The translations under genes were made by a program, and so were the position numbers. Under the pieces are notes generated by a model. The model did no database searches, was not told the DNA's origin, and saw only the letters and a program-made list of their open reading frames with translations. A stretch of 64,000 bases of DNA from Ophelia neglecta. Taxonomy: Eukaryota. Positions 3,001 to 49,600 of this stretch are shown here, in pieces (within the stretch, counting starts at the first letter, position 1; the number at the start of each line of letters is the position of its first letter). Where the stretch lies: assembly GCA_965285935.1 (NCBI GenBank), contig OZ260663.1, positions 84,382,001 to 84,446,000 on the forward strand, written 5' to 3'.

Positions 3001-3984
3001 TACACTCAAACATCTTGTCAGAGCTTCCTGACTGACTCCACTAAAAAACCAGGCAATAGACTTGGCTTCACACTACTCACCATGCTTTCATAGGCAACAA
3101 TGAACAAATTAATCGACCTAGCATACATTCTATTAATTTATGCCTGAGAGAGCCCAATCCATGTATGTACATGTTTAGATCTGTACTTGGAGTGGCTACT
3201 GTAGTGTGTATTATCTGTGCTGTATGTGTCTTTACTGATACAAGCTGTCATGGCTATCTGCATGATAAGTGTCCAAGGTGCTTGTACAAATGTAAATAAT
3301 TTGGTCTTAAACATGGCTATAAATCTTATATCCCCTTGTGGACTGACTGCGTACAACAGGCCTAAACACCCAGAAATAACCATTAGCCTGAAGGCGTCAG
3401 TGTTGATTATTACAAATTAGATCCTAGCCTGTTAATATTACAGGTGTCCTAGCCTGTTAATATTACAGGTGTGAAACACACAGCTGATTGGGATTATAAT
3501 AGGTTTATTAGAGAGACATTAGAACGGCCGTTTAATCCTTCATATTGCTGACTGGAGACTAAATTTCCACCTGTTTGGTTCAGCAAGGTCTGATGTGTGT
3601 GCCCTTGGCTCTTGTCCATGGCTGAGGCTTGTTTAATACACATGGTCATGTACAGGAGGAAGGCTGCTTTCTCTGCTTAATCAAGTGAATCAGACACGGG
3701 CACCTGACGTGGTCAGGTAGAGAGAGACCACAGAGGGCCAGTAACAACACCGGCACCCGGCACACCCGGCACACTCGTGCACAAGGAACTAGTAAATCTA
3801 CCAGCTCTCTGGGTAGTAAATCTACCAACAGGCAGCAGACGTGAGGAGGCTAAGGAGTGGGAGAGGAGAGTTCTCTGGTCATGTACATCTGTCTGTCTGT
3901 CTGTGTGTGAGGCAGGCTATGATACCAGCACACACAGCAGATGTCAGCTCCCCAGCTCATGTGCCCAGGCCGAAGATTAGTCAC

Positions 3985-4155
3985 TGAGTCATAGTCTCGC
4001 ACACCAAGTTTGCACTCGGCACTGGCCGCCACTCACTCGAGAGAGATCGGCACATTGAGTTTAGTTGTGTGTAGCCGGGTTGTGCATGGGACAGAGCTGG
4101 GGTGAGAAGGAACAAAGATGGGAAGTGATTGGCTATAAATCATTGGCAATTGGCT
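3985..4155 (+). promoter_or_regulatory. Possible internal promoter upstream of the 4378 exon
   Basis: TGAGTCA (AP-1-like) at 3985-3991, and a GGAAGT / ATTGG / TATAAA (4134-4139) / ATTGG cluster about 240 nt before the ATG; motif matches only. Confidence 0.3.
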
Positions 4156-4377
4156 ATCTGTGTCCATACCTGTAGCCAGGCTGGCCTGTAACCTCACTGG
4201 GATTATATATACTTACTATAATGCTATATTTACTGGCAGTACACAGTCTATCGGGAGTATACACATAGGATACCAGGTATCAACATGGCTTATTGCTAGT
4301 GGGAGTACCTCATCGTGTACCCAGAAGGCATTCTCAGATCACTAGATCAGTAGATCAGCACATAGGAATAACTCATC

Positions 4378-4698
4378 ATGTTTTGTGGCTGTGGTAAAAA
4401 GAAGAAAAAAGACAAGAACAAAGATGATTATTACAAGAGGTACTCGCCCCCCTCCTCTACGGAGAAGTTAGTGGGTGCCCCAATGACCCCTCCTCCCCGA
4501 CCGAGGGAGGGGGAATCTCCACCGACCGACACCGCAGAGCAAGGCTCTCAGCTACAAAACAGTACAGGGAGCCTTTACGATGAGGCCGCCATCCCCCTCG
4601 TGGATGATCTCAAGGATAGTCCTAGTGCTGCTCAAAAGTCAGAAAAAAGTGATACCGAACTGGAAAAAAGTGAAATAAAAACTCAGAGTAGCAGCCAG
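4378..4698 (+). CDS. MACF1/DST: Candidate alternative first coding exon (107 aa, [11 protein letters not shown]...SSSQ), CH1-less isoform
   Basis: In-frame TAA at 4369-4371, A at -3 of the ATG, protein-like composition, donor CAG|GTAATG in phase 0 matching the phase-0 CH2 exon at 13411. Confidence 0.75.
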
Positions 4699-7600
4699 GT
4701 AATGTGTTTTTGTTTGAAGTCAGTGGCTCACGCCATTAGTAAGGGTGAGCTTTAGGACAGGTGTGTTCTGAGAAATAGGCCCATAGAAATGGTATAGGCT
4801 GTACGCAGCAGGCCAGAATTAACACAGAGTGCTTAACAGTGTGTGTTTATTATGTCAAGGGAAGCAAGTCCTCTGTGAATATTAACTAATGTATTATGAT
4901 GGCTATAGAACTTACCTGACACCTGGCCTGAAACTGATATCTCATTGTCTGACAGGCCGAGTCAGTCTCCTAACAGAATAATACCTCTAGGAAAGTAACA
5001 TGTAGCTTGATTTAATGTCAATATCCCAAGCCAAAGCTCTGCCATCTTCTCTAAAATTCACCTGATACAACTTAATATAATATAGTGATAGCTTTTTCTG
5101 GTTGGAATTTATGCTGAATGTAAAGTACAAATAGGAATTGAGTGTGTCAAGGTACATTACATGTGTTCAGACAATGTGAGGTGATTTGTCAACATTTGAC
5201 TAAAGGTTTCTTGACCCCAGACTGGTCGGTACAGGTCAGTATGAGATGTAAACATGATAGAACCATTGCCATAGTCTGGAGTCGTGTTCATTGTCACATT
5301 GCCCGTTGGTTGTGGACCCCGCCTTGTCTAGTACAACTGGCCCCTTGGCACACCCCAGAACAGAACCCACCTTTACAGCACTGTTTACACTGCATGCTGT
5401 GTTTGCAGTTTACACCTGGGCCAAATAGAATTTACAATCAATATTATTCCAACTAAATATGCTGTCTATTATTACCTGGGAAGCAGAAAGGAGTCCTGTG
5501 TGTTCTTCTCCACCGGGGTAGAATCTCTTGTTTGTTATCCTGGTGAGGTGAAAACCCGACCATCTCCAGAATACCTAGCATATAACAGGATGTGAACAGG
5601 GAGAGTTTGAGTCCCACAGGGCATGGCCCTTTTCATTTGAACATACCATATAACACTCATTGAATGGATCTACAATTATTCATTCTAGTATTGAAATATT
5701 GTGTTTAGATTGATCCTAGTTTTATGACAGATTGAAGTAGAAGACTGTAGACTTCTAGTACACAGTAATAGATGTACACAGTCTGTCATGTTCCTTAGAA
5801 AGGTCTGTATACATTCACCAAGTTGTCAGAACGGGAGAGGTTGAGCTTCAGTCATTAACAACATATCAGTGCCACTTAAATACACATTGGAATCAGGAGG
5901 TTGTACGGTTGTGAAAACACAATTTATTTTCATTAAATTATGATTATTTTCATTAATGATGAAGCCTGATTGGTAGCTACCAGTTGTTTAGTCCTTTGTG
6001 TTTATTAGAGGCACACTTCTGTCTTTGCTGGAGCTCTGAGCCTGTATCTTTATACCAGTGTTATAATCAGTTCATCCAGTCCCCTCCTCCCGGGGTGATC
6101 TGGTCCCCTATGTCTGGTAGTCACTAGGCCAGTAGAATCATTCTCAGTGGTACTCACCACCTCTATGTTGTCACTTTGTAACTTTAGACAAGGTAGAGGA
6201 GGTCACCAATCATATTAGATATGACCAAGAGACAAGCCATGACAAGGAGGGTCCACTTCAAGGGGCTCGGAATCATATTATGAGAACATGGGTACTTTTT
6301 AACAGATGGACCACATGAGTGTAAGTGGAGAGCACCACTGACACTGGTTGTATTAAACCCAGATCACATCTTCAAGGTCTGTCTCCACCGGAGTATGACT
6401 ACTGGGCTCTACATCCCTGGCTCCTACATCCCTGGCTCGTGATCCCCACCTCTTGTGATTAACAGTCTGTAATAGGTTTAATTTTGTTTAACTATATAGA
6501 ACACACTGTCATTGCCATGAGACTCCAAGGTATATTGGGCAATGATATATGTCCTCTTGAATAAGTGAGTCAAGCTCTTACGGAACCTGTTTTATGAGTA
6601 GATGAGCATGCAGGATGTGCTTATATTGATAATTTAATATTTTCTGGTGGCTAGTTTAGAAGCGTACCGTGAAGTCCTGAACTGTGATGGCTGTGTGCCT
6701 CTGACTAGATGCTGTCTACAGGTCAGCTGGCCTTATCACACACAGACTCCGAGACACACACACATGGCATGTGTTAGTACAGAACACCATGCCAGCTGTC
6801 AACACGGTCCACATCACAGGCAAATTACTAGGGAATCCCCCAACAAAGACAGGGATCACCCCAGGAAGGTCAAGGTCGGGATACCCCTCCTGGCTAGATG
6901 CACTGTAAACAGGAAAAGTTTCAACGATGATATGTAATTTGTTCAAATTACTAAAAAAAACATGGCTAATTTCACTGTAGTCAATATTGGGATTCATGAG
7001 TGTTTTATCGACAATGCTTATTTTAAGAAGTTTTTTTTTGCATTTCTTGCGAGGTTCTTTTATTAGAATGTACGTTCTCGACTTATTGATGGTGGCAAAG
7101 CTTTTATAGCAAACAGCCCTTGCCTTTGAAGATGTAGAGCAGCTGTAGGTACCCTGATCAGATGAGTGACATAGCAGGGATTTGCCCCGTGGTCACAGCC
7201 AGATGATGTGGGTGGGGTAGATTAACATCAGTAGACACTGCCAGCAGGCATATTAATCATAATGTCCCCCATAAAGTCCCCCATAATGTCCCGGGGAGCC
7301 TGCTCAAGGCCTGTTGGGATCATCTGTCATTTTAGTCTCATTGGACTCTATGGATTATCACCTCCCATCTACATTGAGTAGGTGTGTGGTATTTCTCACC
7401 TGGACAACACTGCTAAAAAGAGTACCGTAATTCCTCTTATTATTCATACACTCTATTTATTCAAACACTCCAGTTTCCTATAGTTTTACTTTTTTATACC
7501 TCCAATTATTAGTACACCTACATGATAACCTATGTTAGAGACTATGCGAAACTAGTAATAAATATAGTAATAAGTTTGTTTTTGCCCCTTATTATTCATA

Positions 7601-10600
7601 ATGCTGGACATTTAAATAAGTTCAGGCATCTGAAATATTTGAGTAATAACAGTAATTATAGATGTAGAAATAGAATCGCATTTCTGATTTCTTTGTTATT
7701 GTGGCTGCTGGAATTGTTTGTACAATGATATTTGAGAATCTTTAGGAGCACGGGAAGGCACTGACCAATCCTTGGTATGTCATTAGGTCAGAGGTCAGGG
7801 AAGACACTGGTAATAGATACATCCATGTCATTCATGTCCAGCTGAGAGCAGAATCTCTGCTACATGAAACAGGTCAGCTGGGATCACATGAAGGAAATAA
7901 AAATGTGGAGAACTATGACAGCTTAAAGTTGATTAAGAGATTAGCTGTAGTGTTTAGTGTGGTCTTAAGAGGTTAGGTTATGGTGTGTGATGATGTGATG
8001 TATGGTTTCTCTTGTTGACCTCGCTGGCTGTGGGTGACCACTGCTAGGTGAGTTCCTTGTCCTGCTCCCGGGTGTTAGAGTGTTGGTCAGCATAAACTTG
8101 GTAAATTACCAGCATGCCTTCCCTGTCAGCTCCTAGTGGCTGTCAGGGCTGACATCTCACTGGCAAGGTAGGAGCCAACAGCTCACTAGGAGGCCAACAG
8201 TCTGAAGCCAACAAACTGAGCAGGGAGCCAATACCATTCTGTGGCTCCCGGGGCGCTCACATCTGGCAGATTCCTTCAGAGAAATATCCAGCATGACTAT
8301 CATCCTATCATAATGGGCCCAAGTCAGGGGAATTATAGTGAAATATAGACAGGTTGTTCACAAGGCACATCATTATAGTAGGTTTTCCTGCTGGTATCCC
8401 TAGTAACTTGGTGGGAGGGAGGTGTGTGGGATTTGACTAGATACATGTAAATCTACTATTAGCCTAGATTACGGAAAGCAATGATAGTAGTATGTATGTT
8501 AGTGAGACACATGTAATAAATAGTTTATCTTCAGATACATACATGTATAATATATAGTTACTGTTACTGTAGCCATTTAAGGAAACCTGGCTGATACCCT
8601 GAGTTAATATTTATATTAAGTATCATTAACCCTTAAGTAAATTGTGTCATCAGGTTTAACTGTTAAGTCAGCTGTCATTAACCCTTGTGTCATCAGGTTT
8701 ACCTGTCAGTCAGCCGTTATTAACCCTTATATCATCTGGTGTATCTGTAGGGCGGCCAAGAAAGTATTGCTTTGTCTTATTGTTCGAGTCAACAACACAA
8801 AGAGTGTGAGTTGTTGACCAATCATGATGATCATGTACAAGGGTGTATATCATTTGTAGGATTCATGTTGGTGTTGATCTCATGCCAGGGATATATATAT
8901 ATATATATATGGGGGGGGGGGGGGGAGGGGATGGCTTGGGAGTTTATTTTAGAATTTCAGTGATATTTTCATCCCCCCTTTGAGTGGTAACATTCAGCCT
9001 TGTTTGAAGCTCTGTAGGCGTTTCATGCCCAGTCCTGACCCCTTTCTATATGTTATGGACAGGTGTAGCTGGCATGTTGTCAGCCCTAGGCTTCTGTCTG
9101 ATATCTAGTGTTTACCCTATAGACATGCCCTCCACGGGGCCAGCTCTGGGGCTAGGTGTAGGCTGTTACATTGGAGGCCCTCCTAATCTGAACTTGTAAT
9201 CCTAATGGCTGATTTATAGTATAATAGTATGGTGTAAAATGAATGAGGAATGATGTTATTAGATTGATAGTACAGGTAATCACACCTCTGACATGCAGTG
9301 TGTAGTTTACCTCCCAGTCACACCAATTGACAGCCCAATTGCTGGAGATGAAATAAAAATACCTCAGATGTTCGCTGAGTCAACAAGAATCTCTCACTTA
9401 AAAAAGGGGAAATGTTAATGTACTCCAGTCAGAAGGCTGATCATTGTGTTTGTGGTCTTCAAAGAGCATGCTCAGGATATTGGCACTTAGGGCCTTGTCA
9501 ACTTCTTTGTTCTTACCTATTGGGCCTGGCTCCTTTGCAGTGTATTTTGTAGTTTTGTGCTCTTCGTGGCTGATAGATTTTTCTCTTACCGTCAAACCTG
9601 AAAAGTATGGCTAAACATAACGTTCAGTTATTTCCTACAACTGTGGTTCCTCCTGGTTGTTAGTTTTTGAGGAGCAGACCCTGCTAGCTTGGCCCTGCCT
9701 GCTAGCTTGGCCCTGCTAGCTTGGCCCTGCCTGCTAGCTTGGCCCTGCCTGCTAGCTTGGCCCTGCCTGCTAGCTTGGCCCTGCCTGCTAGCTTGGCCCT
9801 GCTAGCTTGGCCCTGCTAGCTTGGCCCTGCTAGCTTGGCCCTGCTAGCTTGGCCCTGCTAGCTTGGCCCTGCTAGCTTGGCCCTGCTAGCTTGGCCCTGC
9901 TAGCTTGGCCATGCTAGCTTGGCCATGCTAGCTTGGCCATGCTAGCTTGGCCATGCTAGCTGGTTAATAGGCTATATGAGCAGTTATATACAACAGCATG
10001 GTCTCATAATCCATCGTCATCATCATCATCATCATCGCCATCATCCTGACTGCTAGCCGGGGTCAGCCAATCACTAGCTAACACCAGGGTATTGACCATT
10101 AGCCTGTTAGTACCAGACCTGTACTGTAGGCTAACCAATCACACCGAGTATATAAGCTAACCTGCCAATATGGCCAAGCTAGCATGGCCAAGCTAGCATG
10201 GCCAAGCTAGCATGGCCAAGCTAGCATGGCCAAGCTAGCATGGCCAAGCTAGCATGGCCATATTGGCAGGTTAGCTTATATACTCGGTGTGATTGGTTAG
10301 CCTACAGTACAGGTCTGGTACTAACAGGCTAATGGTCAATACCCTGGTGTTAGCTAGTGATTGGCTGACCCCGGCTAGCAGTCAGGATGATGGCGATGAT
10401 GATGATGATGATGACGATGGATTATGAGACCATGCTGTTGTATATAACTGCTCATATAGCCTATTAACCAGCTGGTGCCTGTAAGATATAGTGGTAAATT
10501 CACAACCATGAAACTGACCAAGGCATCGGTCAGTTTAGCACCTGGGGAAACCAGTCCAGTTTTATTACCAGCCTGTTCAGTGGCCACTGCCAGATATCAT

Positions 10601-13600
10601 GGCTCACATTTTTATCCAGATCTTATCAGCTGTACTGCAATGCAAACTGATGAAATCATCAGAAATGAAGCCAGGCCCTAGCTAAATGAATTGACTCCTC
10701 TCTCCTGTAAATCATTCACTCCCTCAGAGTTAGTTTAAGTTTGTACCTGCAGGTCTTCTCATGTGATATATCATTAGAAATAAGTTCATAGCTCTTATCT
10801 TTTTGTTGTTTTGTTCTGCTCTAAGCCGTTGACTGTTTTACTTATTTTTTCCATATTTCTCTCTTTGACTTGTTTTCTATGGTTGACCTGTTATCCGAGT
10901 TATTCAGGTAATTTGGTCTAAGACTAAGTTTGTGAGTTATCAAGGAATGCATTGTGTTACCAGGTTGTCAGGTACACTAGTGACTGGATTAAAACTGAGA
11001 TTGGCTAGTGATATGTTTTGAATCTTGATACTTCCTAGCACACAAATAACGCTGTCTTGCCTGTTTATTTATTCTCTCAAACGCTGAGTGAGTCCTCACA
11101 ACATCAGGATCAGGCCGTATATCATGCTTTTCAGAAGTGAGGAAACGGAGCTGGCTTATTTGCCACAAGATAAATCCTCCCCTACTCCTGAGAATGTTTA
11201 TGATTTGCCTCTTTGTAATAAGTCAGCTTGGACTAGAAGAAACTAGATTTTGTATTTTTAACCATTAGCTGTATACCGAGCCTGCCTGGCTGTAATACCT
11301 GCATGTAGCCTGTGGCTTGTCTGATCAAAAACATAACTGTTACTGTAATAATGGAGGCTCCCTGCATAATAAGGTTATACTGGATTATGCCGAGCTGGTG
11401 AATAAAAAAACCCTATGTGAATATTTGTGTGACTGACAATTATAAATATAAGCCCCCAAGTTAAATAACAAATTGAATTTTCAGACATCACAGAGCATTA
11501 ATATTATCCAGACTTCAAGGTTTGAGGGATCCTTTTAGATCCCAATATATCTTCGTTGTGTGGAAAGAGTGACTATGTCATATTTAGATAACTTGAGCAG
11601 GCTGTTGATTACGGAGCCCAACAACGCAATTGGCCTGGATTTATTATTGAATAAATTATATGTAGGTTTCAACCTGCAAAGCATATTTAAGTAGCTTTAA
11701 AACCCACATCAAATGTTATTGTTACCTAGATGTACCAGCTGGCTACTTAGAAAACATATATTGATGTACACGTTGATATATATTGATAGACATACCGATA
11801 TGAGGTTGCCTGGAGAATTTTCCTCTCCATGAGTTTAGTACCTAACATTGATGTAGGTATGTGTACATAGTTATGTAGCTCTGTTGGATGACTCAAACGC
11901 AACAATGTTGATGGTGTCTTAAAAAAAACTCTAGTTGATCATAATGTATTGATTTGCATATTTTATACAGTCTGCTAGCCTTACGGCAACAGTGGATGTA
12001 GGTAGGAAACAGGTGGGTCAGGTCACCTACTGAATTAAGAGGGGAGATTAGAGGGGTCAAGACTCCCTTTCATTTAGAAGTGGGGTGGCAGAGGGGTCAG
12101 CTATGACCTCTCCCCTTTCCCTTCTTCAAGGCTTTTGCCATGAGAGACCCCTGATTCACACACTCCCCAGGTAACACCTCTTATCTCGATTGCTAGGCCC
12201 CCACCCCCTGCAAGACTGCACCTAGTCACCTTGCCAATCTTTTATTGGGTGTCAGTTGTCTCTGAAGTCATGTACCTATTGTTCCAATGCACTTTTTTTT
12301 ATGTATTTGTAAAGTTAATAAGGACTAAATTTATTGATTTACAGCTACAGGTGGTGATCAGTGTACACAAACCTTGAATTTGTTACTGGTCAACCATCAT
12401 TTTGATACATTTGTCATTATGTATATCTTCTTAAACTAAACAGTTCCCAATTTATGCGTCATACATTTTCAGTGTGGTCTGTTATACAGTTTCAGTGTGG
12501 TCTGGCCCTGTGTATAACCCATTTAAATACATCTCTATCAGTGGGTGTCAAGATTCTATATGGTCTCTTGACCGGGCTGACCAGCCACTTTCTCTCAGAT
12601 ATTTATGGCATAATTGTACAACAAACGTCTGAAGAACCCTTCATGTGGTATGATAGCCGGTCTCATTGTTTTGGCTAGGTCATCAAACCTAGTCCTGGCC
12701 GCTAGAGAATCTCTGTTATGTCCTACAGGGGGAACTTAGGTCCAAATAGAAAATGGTCACAATCTGTAAATGTGCCAATTTACATATATGAGAGATAGTA
12801 TATTTATTTTTAGTTATATGATTCATCTTGTTAGACTATTTGTTTTAAGCCTTTAGTGTTTAGTCTCAGTGGGATGTGTGTTGTTTGGTGTACACCTAGA
12901 TCCGTCAATTAGAGAAGGTGAGCTGTGTGTTTCCTGTGAGATCCCTGGCCAGGCTGGCAGTCTTAACACTCGGATGATTAGTCTTCTCAGTCAGCTGATA
13001 TTACTGATATCATATCTATACACCCATTTCTCCTATTGAGATAGAATAATCCAGCCGGGCAATTACGTCTACAATTGTGATAATGTGTGGATTGTTGTTG
13101 AAGGCTGGAAAAACAAAAGCAGGAGATTAATTATCTGGCACAAAAATATATTTTGACCTTTTATTGTCCTGGATAGTGGCCACCTCATGTTCAAATAGTG
13201 ATATTTCCTAGTCAAATTTATAAAATATGCCATGAAGACAAATATTTTTTCTAATTGATGAACATGTTCCGTGATAATGATAAATTTGACAAGACCTTGC
13301 TCAAGAGTCCTCATTTATCAGCCAGGCTGTGAGAATTAAGTATAAAAAAGATCCTACAATTCACTCTTGAGTCCTTGTTGTTTTAAAGTGGTGTTTTTCT
13401 GTTGTTTCAGATATCGGACGTTGTGGTAGCAGGCCAGTCGGACCACCTCTCTGCCAAGGAAGCCCTCCTGTTATGGTGTCGTCGGACCATCGACGGCTAC
13501 CCGGGCATACACATCAAGGACTTCACCAAGTCGTGGAGGGATGGCAAGGCTTTCCTGGCAATCTTACACAGACATAGGTAGCAACACACTAGCAATCATT

Positions 13601-22600: not shown

Positions 22601-25600
22601 TGATTCATAGCTGAACTACCAGAGCATATGATGTTGTCAGCAGTTAAAATAACAGTTTCATAATATTGTCAATCATTAGAATGAGAGTTCCATAATACTT
22701 TCAACAGTTAAAATAACAGTTTCATAAAATTTTCAACTTTAAAATAACAGTTTCATAAAATTCTCAACTTTGACAAATACAGTTTCATGATACTGTCAAC
22801 TGTTAAAAAAGCAGATTTATAATACTGTCAACTGTTGAAAGAACATTGTCATAATGCTCCCACATTCAACATTCATAGGCCTAGTGGTCTAAAGGTCTAA
22901 AGATACAAGGTAGATTCTATTTTGCAAAATGACATTTACATTTACTGCGCAGTTAAATGTGTGATGTTTTACATCATTGGAAAATAAAAAACAGCAGTAA
23001 TTTAATGTATGATGTTTTACTGAGTTTTAAAAACACCAGCAGTAATTAAATATATGTTTTGCATAGTGTGAAACAAAAACCGACTCGTCAGACAGTATAC
23101 ATTAATTACGCAGTAAATGTATGCTGTAGATATTTTAGCTGTAGGCTAGTTGTTAGGGTATATCTGTCTATCTGTACTCTGATGTAGATGGTAGACCATG
23201 GCAGCTGTTGAGCTAATGTCCTGATTTACAGCCATTTATCAAATAAATAACCCAGCCTTAGGAAGAACCAGTCGCCAGCTTTGGTGGGGTTCACCGGGAG
23301 TCTTTGATTTACATGTTATTTGCCATCACTTGTACCTTTATTTCTGGTAGATTGTGGCTTTCTTGCCAAGTCCTGTTAGTTATATCTGGGCAGTAGATAG
23401 TGCTGGCTGCATATCATGTCCACACCGAGACTCATAGCTGAGATACAGCGGCTTGATGAGATTTTAGATTATTAATAACATGCAAAGAATGGTATATTAC
23501 TTTCATCTTATGATGAACTATCATAATCTGACATATTAGGGAAATATCAGTCTGAGTTTTGTTTAATTTAGATGTTATTAAGTGTTCTGTTGGTGGTGTG
23601 TGCTGGCCTAGAGACCAAGCCTCAAGCTAGTAATAACATTAGTAGATATTAAACTTATATCCACTGCCAAAAAAAACAGATGTGAAATTAGGGTGAAACC
23701 CAATGTCTGAATCATCAGAAACAGCTAAGCAAGCAGTCGGCAGTGTTCTGTCAATAATAAGCTCACATATTGCTGGGTGCTGTTTGAAGGGCTTGTAAAA
23801 TGTGGTTTTCGAGATTTTTTCACGGTCAGCTATGTCCATGTATATGTTATATTAACGGGAGCCAGTGTGAATGTATGCTACTGACTGTACAAAGTAGCTT
23901 GTATTAGTATCTGAGCGGTACCAAAGGAGCAGTACCTGGGTATCTCTGGTTAGGTACCTCAATGCTAAGAATCTCTTTTCGAAGAACAAGGACATTAGTC
24001 TATTTCGATTGCATATTTTCAAAACAAAGGGATGGTATTGAGGGAGGTTCCACTGCTGTGTAAAATTCCAAGCCTCAGTTGTCGGTTGCTTCAGGCACAT
24101 GGGGAAAAGCAATGCCAGTTCTGTGAATAATGTGTGCCGGTTCAGCTTATGTAGGATTTGTTTGTGTCTACAAAACAGTGTAATGCCATACTTAGTGTGT
24201 TCAGAGAATTGACATTTGCTGCAGCAAATTGTGCTGTATTTTCGATCATTTCACAGTGGATTACATGAGAAATGTGAGCTTTAGCCAGCTGTAGTTGGTT
24301 TCTCTTATCACCGTCTGTCTGGATGAGGTACACCTTACAACAAGTCAGTGGTGCAATCCACCTTAAACAATGAAGGTCTCCTCCAACATTCACTCTGTAT
24401 GTACTCAGCATGTTAGTGTTACACGGTGGTGTACATTATGTGAACAATGGAGTTATACAGTGCTAGCCCCCACTATGCTGAATATCAGAAGTGTCTCAAA
24501 CTTCACCTATTAAATCCTGAAATGCTGGCCAGAGACAATGGTGTTGCCGGTGATGTAGTTGAGTAGTGTTGAGGGTATTAAAGCTAAGATGGAGGACTCG
24601 GAGTGGTGTTACAATGCCGACTGGCTCCAGTTGCCCGTTCTGTTTGGGATCCTATTGGTCCATCTTGGCAGTTTCTGGGTGGCTTGCCGCTTCCATTACC
24701 AGCGGAAATTCCAGGTTGGTTGATTTCATCCTCAAATGTCAATATTTAAGTTATTTATTGCCCCACCGTGGCTACCACTGTGAGTACATGGCAGGCAGGT
24801 GTGATTGAGTGTTTGAACTGACAGCGGTACCTCCGGTGTGTACTGCAGGAAAAACTTAAAATGATCCCTGCTTTGAAGTCAGAAAGAGAAGTTAAACAAT
24901 ATTATGAAACTTATACTTACATTTGCCCCCTCCCCCTCCCCCCCCCGTGCCCTCCATATTTACATGTATTTGTTTCTCTCTCCCCCCTCCCCCTACCTAG
25001 TAAATGAGTATCCCCCCCACCCCCTCGCTTTTTGCCCTACCTTAACTTGTATATTTGTGTCCTCCTTTTCTCCCTTCTCTCCTACATGTACATTACTATA
25101 TTGTAATATTTAGTAAATGTTTGTGACCCTCTCCCAGTCTCCTCTTTACTTTAACATGTACATGTAAATGTCACTGCTGACTTCCCCATCAGAGTTGTCA
25201 CAGAGCTGTGGGTGTACAGTATGTACTATGTATGTTGTCATATCCATCAGACCTAGCCATTCAGTCGACAGCCCCCACTTACTCCCGGCTCACTCCATGT
25301 GTCATGTATCTACACCAACTTTACACTCTGTGCCAAAAAACTCACCATCATCAGACTAAAAATCAAATCAGCTGGTCTAGTCTGAAAAACATACCAGCCC
25401 AGCAAGCAGACGTCACTGTATGTGTCTGTGTATGTTTACTGGAGGGTTCCACAAGGGGCCTTTGTCCGAGGAGACAGGTTCATGTCTATTTGATACTATT
25501 TACTTCCACCATATTGTTAGTGCGGCCTCCCAGCACAGACTCCCACACAAGGTCAGGTGTTTCCACGTCCCTGATTGGGGGTCTTTTTTGGTATTCAACA

Positions 25601-37600: not shown

Positions 37601-40600
37601 AACTCAATCTATAACAAGTATAACCAGGAAGGCAGACTCAATCTATTATATTATTCCTTTATATAGTACTTTTTCGGTCTAAGACCCTTGATACACCTTG
37701 ATGAATTCATTGTACAATAACTGGGGCAGTGCAAAAAATCAACTTGAAAATGATTTCAAAACAAGGCAGATGTTATGCTTATCATTGCTCTCTTTCCTTT
37801 AATAATAGATGCACGAGGAATAAGTAGTATAGTATTTTTAGTGAATGCTGTTCTAATGCAATTTGCCAATAGTGCCCACTTGGGTACTAAATCTGGAGAA
37901 GTATGAATGTAAGTAGCATATTGATTGTGAGATGGGTTGTCTTTGATAGTAACTTACAATTCATTCTATGTAGATATTTGCTGAGCTATCAGCCCTAGTT
38001 GCCCAGGAGGCTATGAGACCCAGTCCTAGTATGGACCTGGTAGAACAGCTGGAGAGACTGGGTATAGACCTGTCTGATCTGGAGAGGCTCCTCACTGCCA
38101 GACTACAGGAGTCCCTGCCACAGAACCCCCAGGAGGTCCACAGAACTAGGAACACTCACAAGGTAAAACACACATCTCACATGTTACCAGCAAACATACT
38201 AAAAACAAGACCTCAGATACTACTCCCAAACATACTTAAACAAGACCTCAGATACTACTCTCAAACATACTTAAACAAGACCTCAGATACTACTCTCAAA
38301 CATACTTAACACAAGGTAAAACACACTTGTCTTATAGTACACTGAAACATACTACAAGGTAAAACACGCTCATGTCAGGTACTACATTCAAACATACTCG
38401 TTTTATGTGAATTTAGTTGTAGATTGGATTTGCATTTTTTGGGGTTTAGCAACACATAAGCACCATGTAGGCCATTTAGTGTCTTTAATGTAGGTATATT
38501 TCATGTTAGTATCAGAACTGTGTTTATTTGTGTTAACGTGTAGCAATGGTACCAGTGATATGTTGTTGAGCTTTATTGTGTCAAAACATTCTAGGCATAT
38601 GGAGACATTTGCTCTGATTAAAAAGCATAAGTAAAGGTTCATGAAAAGTTACTGAGTCAATAAATAGATATAAAGGGTTTTTGAAAGCCTAAAATTTTAA
38701 AAATCACTTATGTATTCGAGATCTACTACATTTTAAAGTAGTTGTTGAACATTGGTTTGTATAAATAAATACTCAATTGCTCAACTGATTCCATTACTTG
38801 AGTAAAAAATATCACTAGTATATTTGACAGGCTTTCATTGTCTATTGCATGGTTTCTAGTAAGCTGTTTGTTTTCAGGACTTTGAGAGACAGTTACAGAG
38901 CCATGAATCTGAGGTGGAGCATGTCCAGTCTCAGTACCAGTCTATCTCCCCCACTCGACGCACCCCACAGCTCGAGTCCAAGTTCAACATGGCCGTGGAG
39001 AAATGGGAGCAGCTCTGGTCTCTCTCAAAGGTCTACGTAGACAGGTAGGTCCTGCATCTAAGTGCTAATAGTAACAGGGAATAGCCGAGAAAGTATCCCA
39101 ATATTCAGTGAAACCTGCCGTAAAGACAGCCTCTATAAGTTAAGGGCCCCATGATTTTGAATTCTTATTTTATGAAGGTGTATTGTTGTTGTATTGTAAC
39201 CCTGGCACTCCCTGTTGGTTTTCAGGTTAAAGTCTGTAGATATCCTTGTGAGTGGTCTAGAGGAGCTCAATTCTGTAATCAGTGAACAGGAGCAATCCTT
39301 GGCCATGCACACCACCCTGAGTGACCGGGGTGAGCAGCTGGCCTCCAGTCAGAGACAGCTGGCCAGCCTCCAGTCAACCGTGTCCTCCTACCAGCCCCGC
39401 CTGGAGCAGCTACACGGCGACGTGATGGCCGTCAAACAGGCTGTGGCTCGCAGTCGGGCAGGCAGCTCACGGGCACATCCCGATGTACAGAGGCTGGAGA
39501 AAGAGGCGGATGATCTGGTGTCACGCTGGGAACATCTTAACATACAAGTCAATGACAGGTAGGCCATCGTAACATACAAGTAAATGACAGGTAGGCCATC
39601 TTAACATACAAGTCAATGACAGGTAGGCCATCTAAACATACAAGTCAATGACAGGTAGGCCATCTAAACATACAAGTCAATGACAGGTAGGCCATCGTAA
39701 CCTACTAGTCAATGACAGGTAGGCCATCATAACCTACAAGTCAATGACAGGTAGGCTCTCTTAACATGAAATAAAATGACAATTAAAAGTGACTATTAGA
39801 CTTGATCAACACACCCATAATTGGCATGTAGGGCATAGCTGCTTTCTTGGAAATAGAAAAATAAGGACACTACCATTGGCCAATATTGCTTGTTAAATGA
39901 ACGACTTTATTACGTTTTCATTGTATCAAGTGTTTTTTATGCCTCCGCCCGAAGGGGGCCGGAGGCATTATGTAGTCGGGTTGTCCGTCCGTCCGTCCGA
40001 CCGACCGACCGACCGTCCGACCGACCGACCGAAGCAACTTTAAGCAACTATAAACGGCTATAACTCCTCAGGGCTTTGAGAAATTCACTTGTGGCTTCAT
40101 GGAAGTTTGTTATGGCTAGTAGAGGATGATTTCATATTGTTTTCGGACCAATCGGAAAAACAAGATGGCCGCTACGATTCATCGGGTAAGGTTTGTATGT
40201 CGGACGAAATCTCTTGAACGGATGAAGGGATTTTTCTGAAACTTCATGGAAGTCTTCTTTTAGACATTGCGGTGTGCTGAAAAGGTTTTGGGCAAGATCG
40301 GAAAAACAAGATGGCCGCCGAGGGCAATAATTTAGAAATGCATTAACATGGAATCTTTTGGAAGCTTAACGGTGTGAAATAGGTGCATAATATGTATTGA
40401 ACACTAATAGGAAATCATATACAAGGAATCCAGTGGTGTCTTTGAATTTCACCTTGGGTTTATTTTTCAAGGTCAAATCTTAATGCTGAGAGATAGGCAT
40501 ATAAAATGTTTTGAGTACTAATAGGAAATCATACACAAGGAATCCAGTGGTGTCCTTGAATTTCACCTTTGGTTTATTTTTGTTCATATTGTTTTTGGAC

Positions 40601-43600
40601 CGATCGGAAAAACAAGATGGCCGCCACGATTCATCGGGTAAGGTTTGTATGTCGGACGAAATCTCTCGAACGGATGAAGGGATTTTTCCGAAACTTCATG
40701 GAAGTCATCAATGGAGCACTGCGGTGTGCTGAAAAGGTTTTGGGCGAGATCGGAAAAACAAGATGGCCGCCGAGGGCAATAATTTAGAAATGCATTATCA
40801 TGAGATCTTTTGGAAGCTTAACGGTGTGAGATCGGTGCATAATATGTATTGAACACTAATAGGAAATCATGTACAAGGAATCCAGTGGTATCTATGAATT
40901 TCACCTTGGGTTTATTTTTCAAGGTCAAATCTTAACAGTGAGAGATAGGCATATTAAATGTTTTAAACACTAATAGGAAATCATACACAAGGAATCCAGT
41001 GCTGTACTTGAATTTCACCTTGGGTTTATTTTTGTTCATATTGTTTTCGGACCAATCGGAAAACAAGATGGCCGCCACGATTCATCAGGTAAGGGTTGTA
41101 TGTCACGCAAAATCTCTTGAACAGATGCAGGGATTATTCCAAAAGTTCATGGAGGTTATCAATGGGACATTGTGGTGTGCTGAAAAGGTTTTGGGCAAGA
41201 TCGGAAAAACAAGATGGCCGCCAAGGGCAATAATTTAGAAATGAATTAACATGGGATCTTTTAGAAACTTAACGGTGTGAGATAGGCGCATAATATGTAT
41301 TGAACACTAATAGGAAATCATATACAAGGAATCTTGAATTTCACCTTGGGTTTATTTTTCAAGGTCAAATCTTAACGGGGAGGGATAGGCATATAAAATG
41401 TTTTAAACACTAATAGGAAATCATAGACAAGGAATCTAGTGTTGTCCTTGAATTTCACCTTGGGTTTATTTTTGTTCATGTTGTTTTTGGACCGCTCGGA
41501 AAAACAAGATGGCCGCTACGATTCATCAGGAAAGGTTTGTATGTCGCGCGAAATCTATCGAACGGATGAAGGGATTCTTCCGAAACTACATGGAAGTCAT
41601 CTATTGGACATTGCGGTGTGCTGAAAAGGTTTTGGGCGAGATCGGAAAAACAAGATGGCCGCCGAGTGCAATAATTTTGAAATGCATTAACATGGAATCT
41701 TTTGGAAGCTTAACGGTGTAAGATAGGCGCATAATATGTATTGAACACTAATGGGAAATCATATACAAGGAATCCAGTGGTGTCGTTGCATTTCACCTTG
41801 GGTTTATTTTTCAAGGTCGAATCTTAAAGCTGAGAGATAGGCATATAAAATGCTTTGAATACTAATAGGAAATCATACACAAGGAATCCAGTGGTGTCCT
41901 TGAATTTCACCTTCAGCTTATTTTTGTTCATATTGTTTTCGGACCAGTCGGAAAAACAAGATGGCCGCCACGATTCATCAAGTAATGTTTGTATGTTGCG
42001 CGAAGTCTCTAAAGTCTTTTCAGCACTACATCTGCTTCTGACCAATTTTTCCCTAAACCTTTCATCCGCTAATAAACATCTTGGCGGAGGCATCCAGGCG
42101 ACGCCGCTAGGCGTCGCTTGACTGTTCAAGTCGACTTCGATCCACATCGACTACTATCTAGTTTAATGAATTAAGTCGTAATTATATCTACAAACCTAAA
42201 ATATATAGAGATGTTTCTGACTAGTCTTTGTGTTACATTTCATGTTGAGTAATTTTGCTTTCAGGATACGTAATGCTGACATGGCCTCGAGTCTGCTGAG
42301 GGCCTACCATAACGGTATGTCAGAGGAGGGCCCCTGGGTCCAGGAGATGACCCACAGAGTCAAGCAGCTGCCCCCAGTGCCACGCTCAGCTGAGCAGGCC
42401 AGGTCCTCAGTCGACGGCCAGTGGAGACTCTACCAGGAGATCAAGGCAAGAAAGTTCCAGATTGAGGAAGTCAACAGGAACGGAGGGAAATTCATCAAAG
42501 AAACAAGGGTAAGTCAGCGACTCGAGCCTGGCCCAGTTTGGTGTGCTTTCTGCTCTGTTCATTTGGTAGCTTGACACAGTCAAAACACCAACGTGAACTA
42601 CTCACAGCATTTGTCCTGCAATAAAAGCTTTGCCTCATTCATTGCCAGTTTCAGCCTAACACCAGCGAGTGGGTGCTGATCAAACTTCACGTCGTCTGTG
42701 ATCAGTTTTCACATTGCATCTCGCTTGCTTGACGCTTGACATGATTTGATTTCAGTGTATACAATCTAATAACTGACTTTCTTCCAGCTTGTAGTCTTCA
42801 TTTTGTTTCATTTGGTAGCATTCAATGTGGAATGTCCTTGTGTTTATAAATGTACATGCTTTCCTGGTTCTCTTTATTTGTATTTATACTGACTCTTCCG
42901 AGGTGATTTACTACTTACTTTTGGTAGATTTTCATTTAGGTCCTTTTGGACCTGTGTGATTACATTTTTTTCCAGTAGCTATAGATTATTGTACATGTAG
43001 TCAGATGAGGCTTATGATATGTAAACTATGTAAGTATTTGCTGTATACTTGTTGTTGGTTTGTTGTGGGGTGTAGTGGATGTCTTGAGTGCAGTTTAGTG
43101 TAGGCTAGTGCAGTTTGCTGTAGATAACAGTGTTTACACAATGTACAGAGCTGTGCAGTGCAATAACTTAATAATTCCCAGACACATGAATGTATCACAC
43201 CTTTCCAATGCTTGCCATTCGGTCTTTGAAATATATAATTGGATAAAATGAGCAATTTGGGTTAGTAGGGGAAAAAGTTCCATTATTAGCTTTGGTTTGG
43301 GGAGTCTCGTGAACTTGATATGTCAAACAGTTTCATCTACAATTTGCAGTAGCTATTATAAGTATGTCATTAGGTAATGTAATTGGGTTGTAAACTTTTC
43401 CTCCATTTCTTATCTTTTCCGCCAGTTTTGGTACATTTAGAGTGCTCAGTGGTAACCATGCTGCATGATGAACACCTGTCTGTATAAACGTATAGCATGC
43501 ACATGTTGGTACAGATTGTGTACGACACTCACTATTATTAGTTTTTTTTCACTATGTGCATTTTGCCTAAAATAAAACCACTGGCTTTCCTTACCTGTGT

Positions 43601-46600
43601 GAATTGTGAATGTGTGTGTTATTTAACAATCTGTGTGTTTAAATAAAATTTAAATTTCATTGAAATAGATATTTGACAATGAGGGAAAAACAAATTCATC
43701 ATTTTATCCTTTATGACAATTAAATAAAAGCACCATTTGCAATTGTAATCATCAAGTCTTGGCAGTGGCATATTCCACATCAACTGTAACTTTTTACAGA
43801 TTAAATGATCCTGTTTCAGTTGCTCTTGAACTCAAAAACATAAGCTAGGTCATCACCTAAAAATTTTCATTATACATTTCAGATCTTTGAGAAACGGATG
43901 TCACAGTTTCTTGACAGTGTGGAGGAGTCCCAACCAAACATTCGACAGCAGCTGTCCAGAGTGACTCCCATGCCATCTGGTGGCGACTCGGTGACCTCCA
44001 ACCTAGACAGACTTAACAGACAATATATGGAGTTGCTAGCGGAAGTCAACTACAAGTTGAAGCAAGTCAAAGATCTGTATGAAAGTGAAGGATTTTACTT
44101 CCCAGTAAGTAAATCACTTTTATTATTAAAATTATGGTTGAATAATTGATTTATTAACCGTTATTATGCTGATTATGCAGCATTGACCATGTGTTGAGAA
44201 TGACTATCAAACTGATTTCTTAATTCTTTATGTTTCCATTTCAGTACAACTTGGATGGGACCATACCACGTATGAGAACATACCGTTCTGAGCTGCGTAT
44301 GCTAGAAGATGAAGACTTCGTCGGGATGGTTCCCACCAGCCAATGGTCAAGGGAAGCTTCTCCAGAGAAAGGCAGGACCTTTTCTTCATCAGTTGCCATG
44401 AGTCCATCTGCCATGGAGAGCACAGAGGAGAATGTGAGCCGTGTGGTACGTGTCACCCGGGCCTCCACACTCCAGCAGAGGGAGGAGGGCATTGAGGAGC
44501 AACATAGCAGGTCTCTGCCACGGGGAGAGCGCTACGCTCCCCAGACAGTTTCTGGTGTGGACCAGCATGCCTTCGCCACCAGGGCTGTGTCCAACATTAC
44601 CTCTATATCTGTTCACAGCCAAGGTCGGGAGCAGATGGTACCCATAGTGCCTATAGCCCCCCACGTGGAGCGTCACGTACAGACTGTGATCAACGTCGAG
44701 TCTGCCTCTCTTGTCCCCAAGGGGCAGGTTCGATACGTATCAGCTTGTGTACACCCTGAGACAGGCAAACAGCTGACCTTGGTGCAGGCCATTGAGGCCG
44801 GACTTCTTGATACCAGATCTGGCACATTCAGAGACCCTAGGACACGAAGAAACATTTCACTCTCAGAAGCTGTTCGCCTGGGCTTCCTCGATAAGGATAT
44901 GCTAAACGAACTTCAACAGAAATGTGGCCTACGCGATCCTCAAACAGGGCGTGAACTCTCCCTTCTAGAGGCAATCCAGAAAGGATATTATGACCCTGTC
45001 AGTGGAAAAGTCAAGGATCCGAGATCTGGAGCCTTACTATCAGTAGAAGAGGCCCTCTCAACTGGTCTCATATCTGCCCACGTCGCATCTAAACTCTCAT
45101 ATATTAGTGTAGCAATCAAGTCCACAAGCCATAACCGTGGATATTACGGCCTTCCAAACATGGAAGGGACAGAATTAGGACTAACCTTAGGTGATGCTCT
45201 TAACAAAGGACTTTATAACCCAAACACTGGCAAATTCATCGAGCCTGTGTCCAGGGAAGAATTGTCCCTGGCGGAAGCCATAGAGAGAAAGCTAATCAAC
45301 CCTAATTCAAGAGAAATTGTACATTCTGTAACTGGCGAAATTTTAACAATCAGTGAAGCCATCAGAAAAGGAATACTGAATTCAGAATCAGGTCAATACC
45401 TCGACCCCAGATCTCGCAAAGCCTTGACGCTGGACAAAGCCAAGGATAAACAGTTAATTGAGGCTCCACTCACATTACACAATGCCCTGAAGGAGGGTAT
45501 CATTGACAGAGAAGGAGAGTTCAAAGACCAGCAAACCGGGAGAAAACTAACATTATTTGAAGCCATTGAGAAAGGTTTGCTAGACACTGACTTCAAATGT
45601 ATCATTGACCCAAGGACTAATGAAGTGCTCTCCCTGCAGGAGGCCATAGCGAGAGGTTTGATCAACAGAGAAGGACTGTTTGTTGACCCTCTCTCAGGCA
45701 GCCAAATGTCTCTTCAGGAGGCGGTCAACCAAGGGTTAACACGGGTGCTCAGCCAGGAAATTACATTTGCAGATAGATTCGTGACAGATACAATCACCGG
45801 AGAGAAGTTAACTCTTAGCGAGTCCATTCAGAGAAGTTATATTGACCCCAACACTGGTTCATATATTGACAAGCGGACCGGCAGAGAGATGAGCATGGAA
45901 GCTGCTGTTAAGCAGGGTCTGGTTGACCCTGACCTGCTGAGGCAGTTCAATGCTGACTCAGGGCTTAGTGACATCATGGGTAACAGCCTCAGTGTAGCCG
46001 AGGCCCTGAAGCGTGGCCTGATAGACCCCAAATCGGGCCATGTTACTGACCCATCGTCTGGAAGAACCATGTCATTAGAAGATGCCATTGTTGCAGGCCT
46101 GCTTGAGTCAGACAGGGCCAAGTTCCTGATGACCCTCACTAGTCCTGTTGTGTCAAGTACAACAATTACCTCTGAGATTCGACCTTCTGCACCAACAGAT
46201 GGCAGACCCAATGCTTTGACTGTTGAAGAGGCTGTCCATCAAGGACTCATCAGCGAGGAAGCTGGTGTTTTCAGAGACCCAATTTCAGGTCAAACCATGT
46301 CCCTAGAACTTGCCATATCAAAGGGATATCTGCTTTTGACCAAAGATAGGTCACCTGCCATTGATGACCAGGATGGGGAGCCTACTGCTAAAGTAGCTCG
46401 TAGTCCTGACGCCACCCGAATTCCCGTGACAAAAGAATCAGAAGTGTCTGTGATATCTAGAAAGAGTCCCTTGAGAGATAGAGACTTGTCCATTGTAACC
46501 CCAGGAAGGAATGAAGAACACCAGGTGGAAGAAGACAGCGATGAGTACACCAAGGACATTGAAGGAGGCCAAGAGAAAGTCAGAGAACTGACCAGAAAGG

Positions 46601-49600
46601 AGTACCATGCCCGACAAACAGACACAGGCTTTGAGAGTGTCGCCATCCACGAAGCCAAACAGATGTCTCTGGCATCCACAAGATCAAGTGTGATGTCCGG
46701 GGAGCTTCCGTTACCTCTGTCATTGGTGGACGCCATTAAACATGGCCTTTTGAATCCTGAAACAGGTCTTGTGAAGGACCCACATTCTGGTGCTGATAGG
46801 ATATCCATCCAAGATGCTTTTGATGTGGGTATTCTTAATCCTAAGACAGCCATGTTCAAAGATCCCAGAACTAAACAGATGTATGGCCTACAGGATGCGA
46901 TTGAGAAGGGATTTTTAGATGCAACTTGTCACTACTTTGATAGAAAAACCAAAACCAAACTGAATCTCGACATTCTGATAAAGCAAGGAATTGTGACCAC
47001 TTCCCAGGTTCCTATACTCCCGGGGAGTGGAAGAATACCAGTGATCTCTGAAACCAGGAAAATTATGGTGAAAACAGTCATTGACCCAAGAACAGGAGAA
47101 GAAATAGACACGGATGAAGCTCGTAGACGTGGCATATTGGATACAGAAAGAGGGGTCTACATGAATTTTAGTACTGGCGAGGAGTTGTCATTACAAGAAG
47201 CCATAGCTCAAGGATTACTAGTGGCTGACTCCAGTCTGAAGGCAGCTGGAGACTTTTTCACCACCAAATCTATCAAAGAGTCAAAGAGCTATACAATCAC
47301 CGGTGCCGTGGACCCAGCCACTGGTAGAAAAGTGGAGGTAGGCTACGCCTTACAGAAAGGCATCATTGACCAAGCTAACGGAGAGTATGTGGGCCTGGAT
47401 GCCCATGGAAAAGAACTGAGACTGCCAATATCTGAGGCCATCAAGAAAAAGCTTGTTGTTGCAGAGTCAACCAGCTCTAAAACGAGTGTTGATTCTGGAC
47501 CCAGATATCTACAAGAGAAAAAGACATTTTCCATCAGTGGTGTTGTTGATCCTATTAAAGGCATTGAAATACCAGTATCAGAAGCCATAAAGAAGGGATA
47601 TCTAGACCAAGCCAAAGGCCAGTATGTGAATCCTATCAGTGGCGATACCATGCTCATCACAGAGGCTGTAAACAAAGGCCTTGTCATAGCCGAAGTGCGA
47701 AGTACTACTGCTGAATCTGACAAACCTCTGGAGAGTAGTATAGCAATGACCAAACAAACAATATACACCCTCAAGTCATTGATTCATCCTGTGACTGGAA
47801 AAGAAATCAGCGTGAATCAGGCAATTGAAGAAGGGATCCTCGACCAGTCGAAGGGAGAATATCGCAACCCACGCACGGGGAAGGTGCTAACCCTCAGTGA
47901 TGCTATTGACCAGGGTTTGGTGAAGGTAGAATTAGGAAGGAAAGTTACCAAAGAGGAGAGAGATGAAAAGGTGCCCAGTTTGGAGATTGATGATGAACTG
48001 GATGCCCTGGAAGAGATGGCCCATGAAGAAGTGTCCGAGGAGAGCAAGACCTTCCAGATTACTGGCGTCACTGATCCCGAGTCAGGGGACATGATACCAT
48101 TTCAAGATGCCATTGATCAGGGTCTCATCAATGAAACAGCAGGAATGTATGTTAACCATGTGACTGGAGAGAGAATTCCCATCCCTGAGGCCTTGAACAA
48201 AGGACTGATAGTTGGTCAGCTTGTTGCACATACAGCTGAACATGAACTGTTCAAGAGTGCACACATATGCAGTAGACTAGATGGAGATATAACTATCATT
48301 TCAGTCCATAATCCAATTACTGGACTTCATGTGCCAGTCTCGCAGGCTATGAGAATTGGATTATTGAGCAGGGATATGCAGACTTACTATAACCCAGAAA
48401 CAGACGAGAGAATCGATTTGGAAGAAGCAGTAAGAAGAGGACTGGTCAAAGTGAAAGAAGACATTGGTGCTAAACAATCAGTCTCAGAACTAGAAGAAGG
48501 AGAACATCCCCCAGAATTTTACAAGAGAAAAGGAAGGAGAAGAGCCATTATTGACTGGACCAATGGTGGAGTCCGAGACAGTGAGACAGGCCACAAGATG
48601 AGAATCGTTGATGCACTGAAACAAGGCCTCATTGACCAGACCACTGCCGATCTACTCAGCAAGAAGGCAGAGACTGTCCCATTCCATGGATTAGTCAATA
48701 AAGACAAAGAAGAAGTTGTGGTGACAAGAACCAAAGGGGGGAAAATGAGACCTGGGGCTGCTGGGTCAGCTGGCCAGGGTGAGACAGTAGAGCCAGATGA
48801 GCCGGAGAAGGTCAGTCTTACCATTGAGACAACTGACCTGATAGGGTTCCCTGTTAAATCTATCACCATTGTTGAAGAACCTATGGATGACAGCGCAGAC
48901 ATGTCAAGAGATGACAGGTCCCTGGCTGAGCCAGGTTTGTTGTCATTTGACAGTGCTGTCAAACTGGGACTTTACAATGTAGTGACTGGTGTATTCAGAG
49001 ATCCTGTCACCGGTTTCACCATGTCCCTTCAAGAAGCCATAGAGCAAGGCCTACTGGACGTCAATGACCCTGCCATCATTGACATTAAAAGTGGAAGATC
49101 ATATTCTCTTGCTATTGCAATGCAAGAAACTCTTGTATATAAGGAAAGTGGGAAAATCAATGAGAGCAAGATTAGAAGCTCAAAAGTTGCCTTGGATCCT
49201 CTTTTCACTGGCCAAGAAGCTAAGATGTCACCTCTGAACTTAGAAGATGCCATTCTGGTTGGATTGTTGGATCCCACCTCAGGTTCATTTATGGACCCAC
49301 AAACTGGCAAGACAATGACTCTGAAAGAAGCTGTTGATAAGCGTCTTTTGTGTGGAGATTCTGTTGTTGTCACCAATCCAAGTGACAGCAAAAAGTACAC
49401 TCTGGAAGAAGCATTCAGGGCAGGCATTATTGACAAAAAGACTGGACATGTCATCAAAGGAAACACTAAGTTAATGTCCCTGGCTGACGCTGTCCGTGCC
49501 AGCCTGGTGGAGAGTGTTTACAAACCAGATACAGGCATGTTCATTGACAAATTCTCTGGAGAAGAGGTGACACTTGTCAAGGCTATAAAGGATAGTTTGG

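Follow-up and report, generated by a model that had tools for sequence, protein, structure and literature searches.

The intron between the CH1 and CH2 exons of the Ophelia neglecta spectraplakin gene contains an open reading frame that is almost certainly a real coding first exon and that is very probably joined to the first CH2 exon, which would give an isoform lacking CH1. The predicted product begins with a tag of two closely spaced cysteines and a run of lysines that likely acts as a palmitoylated membrane anchor. The feature itself is real and conserved; the class of isoform to which it belongs (CH2-only) is already known, and the tag is new within that class. Positions given without a contig name refer to the window, the whole 64,000-nucleotide stretch of DNA that was analysed (G000:C5:84382001-84446000). 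The exon, its surroundings, and its predicted splice partner comprise the following features.

4128..4153, + strand: possible promoter elements (TATAAA at 4134 and three ATTGG, i.e., inverted CCAAT, boxes), a weak hint
4369..4371, + strand: in-frame stop TAA 5' of the ATG, with no AG between the TAA and the ATG
4378..4698, + strand: coding portion (107 codons) of the candidate alternative first exon; the encoded leader is disordered
4378..4410, + strand: N-terminal tag (Met-Phe-Cys3-Gly-Cys5-Gly and five Lys), a predicted S-palmitoylation/polybasic membrane anchor
4426..4608, + strand: short motifs shared with the homologue P0171 (DYY, SPPS, APMTPPP, and SLYDxAxIPxxDD) in the disordered part
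4699..4704, + strand: phase-0 splice donor GTAATG (junction CAG/GTAATG at 4698/4699)
13411..13577, + strand: first CH2 exon and predicted splice partner, opening with ISDVVV behind a phase-0 TTTCAG acceptor (Pfam CH, E = 2.8e-10)

Position of the exon in the spectraplakin gene

The description of the exon in the original prediction was borne out: the frame starts at the ATG at 4378-4380, follows an in-frame TAA, encodes a disordered leader, and ends with a Gln codon at a phase-0 donor. Disorder-promoting residues account for 75% of the leader composition, and the net charge is +6 in residues 1 to 15 and -7 in the remainder. The exon is single copy across the genome and is therefore not a repeat. 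Pfam assigned no family to the leader, to P0171, to the ORF at -17638 (C5:84364362), to the ORF at 24589, or to P0188 and P0189. A 4th-order coding-potential model was overfitted, giving negative scores for true exons, and was dropped. Upstream of 4378, the ATGs at positions 4221 and 4285 would each open a short upstream ORF; the ATTGG background within the CH1/CH2 intron is 1.3 per kb.

Four CH1 exons, a search for which beyond the window had been proposed as a check, were located within the 200 kb that precede it (C5 84330618, 84354210, 84354608, and 84357098-84357190, at distances of 51.4, 27.8, 27.4, and 24.9 kb from its start). The one nearest the window ends with ILHFQ at a phase-0 donor. 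The candidate exon lies inside the 38.2-kb intron separating this last CH1 exon from the CH2 exon at 13411, whose acceptor fits in phase both the last CH1 donor and the candidate's donor at 4698. A six-frame motif scan of window positions 1 to 30000 produced no noteworthy match to CH1, and 4699-13410 contains no other recognisable gene; the earlier statements that this interval holds no CH1 exon and that the next recognisable exon opens with ISDVVV thus proved correct. With its coding start within the CH1/CH2 intron and in phase with CH2, the gene has the layout of type-3, or C-type, isoforms.

The CH and plakin exons are those of a spectraplakin. CH2 exons lie at 13411, 15644, and 20166, and a tandem CH1-CH2 actin-binding domain is present. 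A plakin domain with SH3 follows the CH domains, as judged by collinear tblastn matches to P0007, P0015, and P0003 across 21616-44316. PF02187 (GAS2) exons that may belong to this gene occur at C5:84511424 and 84513192, on its strand and 65 to 67 kb beyond the window end. In a 16-row tree, the gene falls with Helobdella and two further rows (support, 100/99) and separately from the molluscs, nemertean, and arthropods included, so we regard it as an annelid-clade spectraplakin. Elsewhere in the locus, a possible micro-exon near C5:84353150 matches the Octopus HWRF insert. Two very long open frames (44224-55482 and 56394-63596; 3753 and 2401 codons between stops) resemble giant plakin-repeat exons, and a dispersed, tandem-like intron repeat occupies approximately 40100-42150, with near-identical frames at 40135-40365, 40587-40817, and 41479-41709 and neighbouring positions.

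The CH1/CH2 intron contains three ATG frames of at least 100 codons that end at a phase-0 donor, versus 0.045 on average across 200 block shuffles; there were none on the minus strand of the intron and none on either strand of three other stretches of the gene. Two further candidate CH1-less first exons, both upstream of the window, were absent from the original prediction. These and the other candidate starts in the gene are as follows.

L002:2362-2928 (G000:C5:84364362-84364928), + strand: second candidate CH1-less first exon, single copy, 189 codons ending at a strong phase-0 donor (GTAAGC), product Ser rich and containing both acidic and basic patches
L066:766-1104 (G000:C5:84371765-84372103), + strand: third candidate CH1-less first exon, single copy, 113 codons ending at a phase-0 donor (GTAATA), product with several Cys and less evident disorder
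24589..24714, + strand: candidate first exon ending at a phase-0 donor (GTTGGT) and encoding a hydrophobic segment (Kyte-Doolittle mean of 2.04 over 19 residues)
G000:C5:84319525: candidate phase-1 first exon for CH1-containing isoforms, 39 codons, resembling LQLDPADRAVLRIA-type starts of molluscs and insects
G000:C5:84329389: candidate phase-1 first exon for CH1-containing isoforms, 20 codons, identified by an ORF and donor only

The exon at 24589 is a candidate transmembrane, D-type start. Spliced to the phase-0 exon at 26001, it would give a product that has neither CH domain and lacks the first plakin exons.

Conservation of the leader and distribution of the tag

A phmmer search with the leader among 1.84 billion representatives (E ≤ 0.001) returned four hits. 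One of these, P0171 (an ENA product from a 19-kb contig), is a homologue, with an E value of 2e-8 and 45% identity over 92 aligned columns. P0171 begins MFCGCGRKKKKK and shares the start pattern MFCGCG[KR]KKKK with the candidate. At the matching exon end it reads SQ and then V, and the hydrophobic share of its residues rises from 17% before this point to 44% after it; beyond SQ, P0171 looks as intron read-through past the equivalent donor would look, and there is no conservation of the read-through. The candidate exon is the sole match of P0171 in this genome. Since P0171 keeps the start, the internal motifs, and the exon end, we conclude that the exon is under coding constraint. The other three hits were spurious: P0170 and P0172 consist of tandem repeats, and P0173 is an unrelated protein whose match is confined to residues 44 to 90 of the query. 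The vertebrate a3 leader was absent among the hits from these 1.84 billion representatives. Within the disordered part, the stretch SLYD[ED]AxIP[LF]xDD at 4555-4608 is kept in P0171 and is possibly a phosphotyrosine or protein-binding site.

Variation was assessed in runs X1 to X3, which are genomic runs from one study with even intron coverage; X1 is possibly the source of the assembly. Seven variants fall within the exon, on two haplotypes (runs) that differ from the reference, and none is an indel or a stop. The two variants in codons 1 to 40 are both silent, while the remaining five of the seven lie in the tail and are all missense. This pattern would suit a head under constraint followed by a loose spacer, though as evidence it is weak. 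Just past the donor, X2 carries a 2-base loss at 4723 that frameshifts the read-through frame. In X3, window positions 3770-4406 contain one variant (at 4041) in ~640 bases, compared with 1 to 2.5% elsewhere in the intron, which may reflect promoter constraint or haplotype structure.

A degenerate DNA version of the start pattern has a single match in 762 Mb, the candidate itself (0.11 expected; no match for the reversed control). In JGI metagenome contigs, the pattern was found at 44 loci, 4 of which (L036, L042, L053, and L029) have Met-Phe or Met-Leu starts. L036, L042, and L053 lie on gene-poor contigs, begin M[FL]CGCGRKKKK, and reach a phase-0 donor after 61, 21, and 179 codons, respectively. 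The 0.9 to 1.9 kb of DNA downstream of them contains no spectraplakin exon, none of their surroundings has a homologous leader adjoining a CH2 exon, and by BLASTP they have in common with the candidate the first 6 to 7 residues only. These three, which have little in common beyond the tag, may thus either represent orthologous leaders or belong to other genes that carry this tag. L029, whose first ten residues are identical, was set aside as a 14-codon ORF without a donor on a gene-dense contig. A further 27 of the 44 loci (within L022-L063) are small ORFs that begin MGCGCG followed by Lys or Arg, mostly on gene-dense contigs; among three such contigs that were checked, one was giant-virus-like and two were large-phage-like. 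The motif thus also arises outside animals and is not confined to acylated animal proteins, which calls for caution in interpreting the tag. Among individual loci, L027/L030, an Erv1/Alr protein next to a primase-helicase of the C962R type, is giant-virus-like, and L035 and L051 resemble phage.

Other searches for relatives were negative. When the leader was compared with longer proteins (189 to 2000 aa) by word index, a weak method, 0 of 699 candidates scored, and a related-locus search using the two-row leader alignment confirmed 0 of 581 pattern matches. Cluster look-ups yielded no named relative for any leader and no lophotrochozoan CH1-less isoform.

The tag as a predicted membrane anchor and competing readings

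Cys is present at positions 3 and 5 and Phe or Leu at position 2 in all five leaders (Phe2 in the candidate, P0171, L036, and L042; Leu2 in L053). As originally noted, the Gly2 of dystonin-a3-type myristoylation is absent, residue 2 of the candidate being Phe. Proteins with Met-Phe or Met-Leu starts retain the Met, which is acetylated by NatC, and this helps some non-myristoylated Arf-like GTPases bind membranes. The candidate has two Cys in its first five residues and a hydrophobic residue 2, as in PSD-95- and GAP-43-type starts. According to excerpts of one account, PSD-95 is palmitoylated at Cys3 and Cys5 and needs five consecutive hydrophobic residues, and GAP-43 requires a hydrophobic residue 2 (PMC2156213); for Gs and Gq, polybasic clusters have been proposed to compensate for the absent myristate, in passages of another (PMC8003949). 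PSD-95, GAP-43, and the Gq/Gs alpha subunits likewise combine Cys at the extreme N terminus, a hydrophobic residue 2, nearby basic residues, and no myristate, a likeness that is one of analogy, not homology. The earlier proposal of a palmitoylation/polybasic signal is thus plausible with respect to Cys3, Cys5, and the Lys run, whereas the hydrophobic run of PSD-95 is broken by Gly4 and Gly6, with a polybasic run in its place.

The lysines lend themselves to another reading, in which the exon is a real CH1-less first exon whose tag is not a lipid anchor: the Lys run would be an NLS, or CGCG would bind a metal or a partner protein. KKKKK matches the classical monopartite NLS pattern, CGCG-basic starts are also found on phage-like contigs, whose hosts (as suggested by Pfam neighbours) would have no DHHC enzymes, and the PSD-95 hydrophobic-run rule does not hold here. 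However, the fixation of Cys3, Cys5, and Phe/Leu2 in 5/5 leaders exceeds what an NLS needs, a protein of several thousand residues would be an unlikely nuclear cargo, and the equivalent dystonin isoform is described, in the passages cited below, as having a putative acylation leader. We consider this reading unlikely. The occurrence of L036, L042, and L053 on gene-poor contigs unlinked to any spectraplakin exon would suit a nested transcript, of which this would be the first exon, or a stand-alone short ORF, neither joined to CH2. Against this, strand and phase 0 agree with the CH2 acceptor, the interval up to 13410 has no other recognisable gene, the read-through past the donor is unconserved and is frameshifted by the loss at 4723 in one haplotype, and starts in the CH1/CH2 intron have precedent in the family, as far as excerpts of the literature describe them; such a transcript is improbable.

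Two readings that question the extent or the reality of the exon are more doubtful still. Only its 3' part might be used, as an internal cassette between CH1 and CH2 with a phase-0 acceptor before 4465 or 4468, where a pyrimidine-rich tract and phase-0 AGs occur; P0005 and P0022 (Octopus and Bombus) do have short inserts at the CH1/CH2 junction. Yet the best-conserved part of the leader (codons 1 to 28) is upstream of both AGs, and both have a purine at -3, in contrast to the CAG acceptors of the CH2 and last CH1 exons, which makes the cassette highly improbable. We give the least credence to a chance ORF or a dead exon: missense variants in the tail would be compatible with it, but a homologue with an equal start and end at an E value of 2e-8, the shuffle expectation of 0.045, and the presence of the exon in single copy all argue otherwise.

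Position, phase, upstream stop, and the conserved homologue P0171 together support the original proposal of an alternative, CH1-less spectraplakin start. On balance, we favor the complete scheme in which an exon with its own start is spliced in phase 0 to 13411 and yields a CH1-less isoform that is held at the plasma membrane by predicted palmitoylation of Cys3 and Cys5. Transcription would start from a promoter inside the CH1/CH2 intron, and the donor at 4698 would be spliced in phase 0 to the CH2 acceptor. Loss of CH1 would strip the protein of most F-actin binding, as is known for Shot-PC and type-3 isoforms. At the membrane, the basic patch would first contact acidic inner-leaflet lipids, and a DHHC enzyme would then acylate both cysteines, with the acidic, disordered spacer keeping CH2-plakin-rod-GAR away from the bilayer. 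The outcome would be microtubules tied to the cortex without actin, and the isoform would most likely function to tether the microtubule-binding end to the membrane independently of actin.

Comparison with known CH1-less spectraplakins

The finding is an isoform detail within a well-known family rather than a new system. Excerpts of the literature describe starts with CH1 plus CH2, with CH2 only, and with no CH for all spectraplakins (10.1101/122010) and report that CH2-only isoforms bind actin weakly (PMC3352950; PMC4914211), with negligible actin binding by Shot-PC (PMC9320987). The role of CH1-less spectraplakins is poorly understood, to judge from such passages: informative motifs are reportedly missing from the lead sequences of Drosophila Shot (PMC9320987), and the dystonin-a3 anchor is still putative. 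In this setting, a short, conserved annelid tag offers a clean, testable case for exchange of CH1 for a membrane anchor as a recurring design, and the 11-residue tag could be used as a graftable targeting sequence. We found no literature account of annelid or mollusc spectraplakin leaders in a search that covered few subscription journals. Among 152 long spectraplakin and plectin proteins (the search for long members covered 3080 to 5000 aa and 120 of 1329 matches), a set made up mostly of vertebrate plectin with few lophotrochozoan members, none begins with the tag.

The A/B/C/D promoter layout of Shot is mirrored in the Ophelia gene. In the Drosophila C-type and RefSeq insect CH1-less isoforms (P0020, P0146, P0147, and P0152), the leader is likewise joined directly to ISD at the start of CH2; however, none of these four leaders has an N-terminal Cys cluster or the Cys/basic tag, and candidate C-type starts in the Ophelia gene number up to three. 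The transmembrane leader of dystonin precedes the full actin-binding domain, whereas the 24589 candidate lies downstream of both CH domains. Since these insect C-type leaders lack the tag motif, convergence is likelier than descent, and of the original prediction's wording, "conserved or convergent," it is the latter that fits. We suggest, tentatively, that a lipid-anchored spectraplakin arose independently in annelids, and perhaps also in other invertebrates, in which a myristate-free M[FL]CGCG-polybasic tag takes the place of CH1 and would link microtubules to the membrane without actin, convergent on dystonin-a3, and that, counting the two further CH1-less starts and the transmembrane start, a single gene may have six N termini with which to choose among actin, lipid, and transmembrane anchoring.

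The closest known systems are vertebrate. Mouse and human dystonin (BPAG1) a3/b3 likewise use an alternative start before a single CH and carry an N-terminal lipid-anchor motif: partial accounts give dystonin-a3 a putative myristoylation motif that aids plasma-membrane location (PMC3279385; PMC6975176; PMC3352950), with a second-hand mention of potential palmitoylation sites. MACF1a3 (ACF7-3) is also CH2-only from an alternative start, and the review passages that describe it mention no acylation (PMC4914211). The precedent originally cited for acylated leaders therefore stands for CH1-less isoforms family-wide and, as a putative motif, for dystonin-a3, whereas these sources describe none for MACF1a3 or Shot. 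By description of the a3 leader, which is the basis of this comparison, dystonin-a3 is putatively myristoylated, and the candidate, with Phe2 and hence no Gly2 myristoylation, would work like dystonin-a3 but outside its myristoylated class, a likeness more readily attributed to convergence than to descent.
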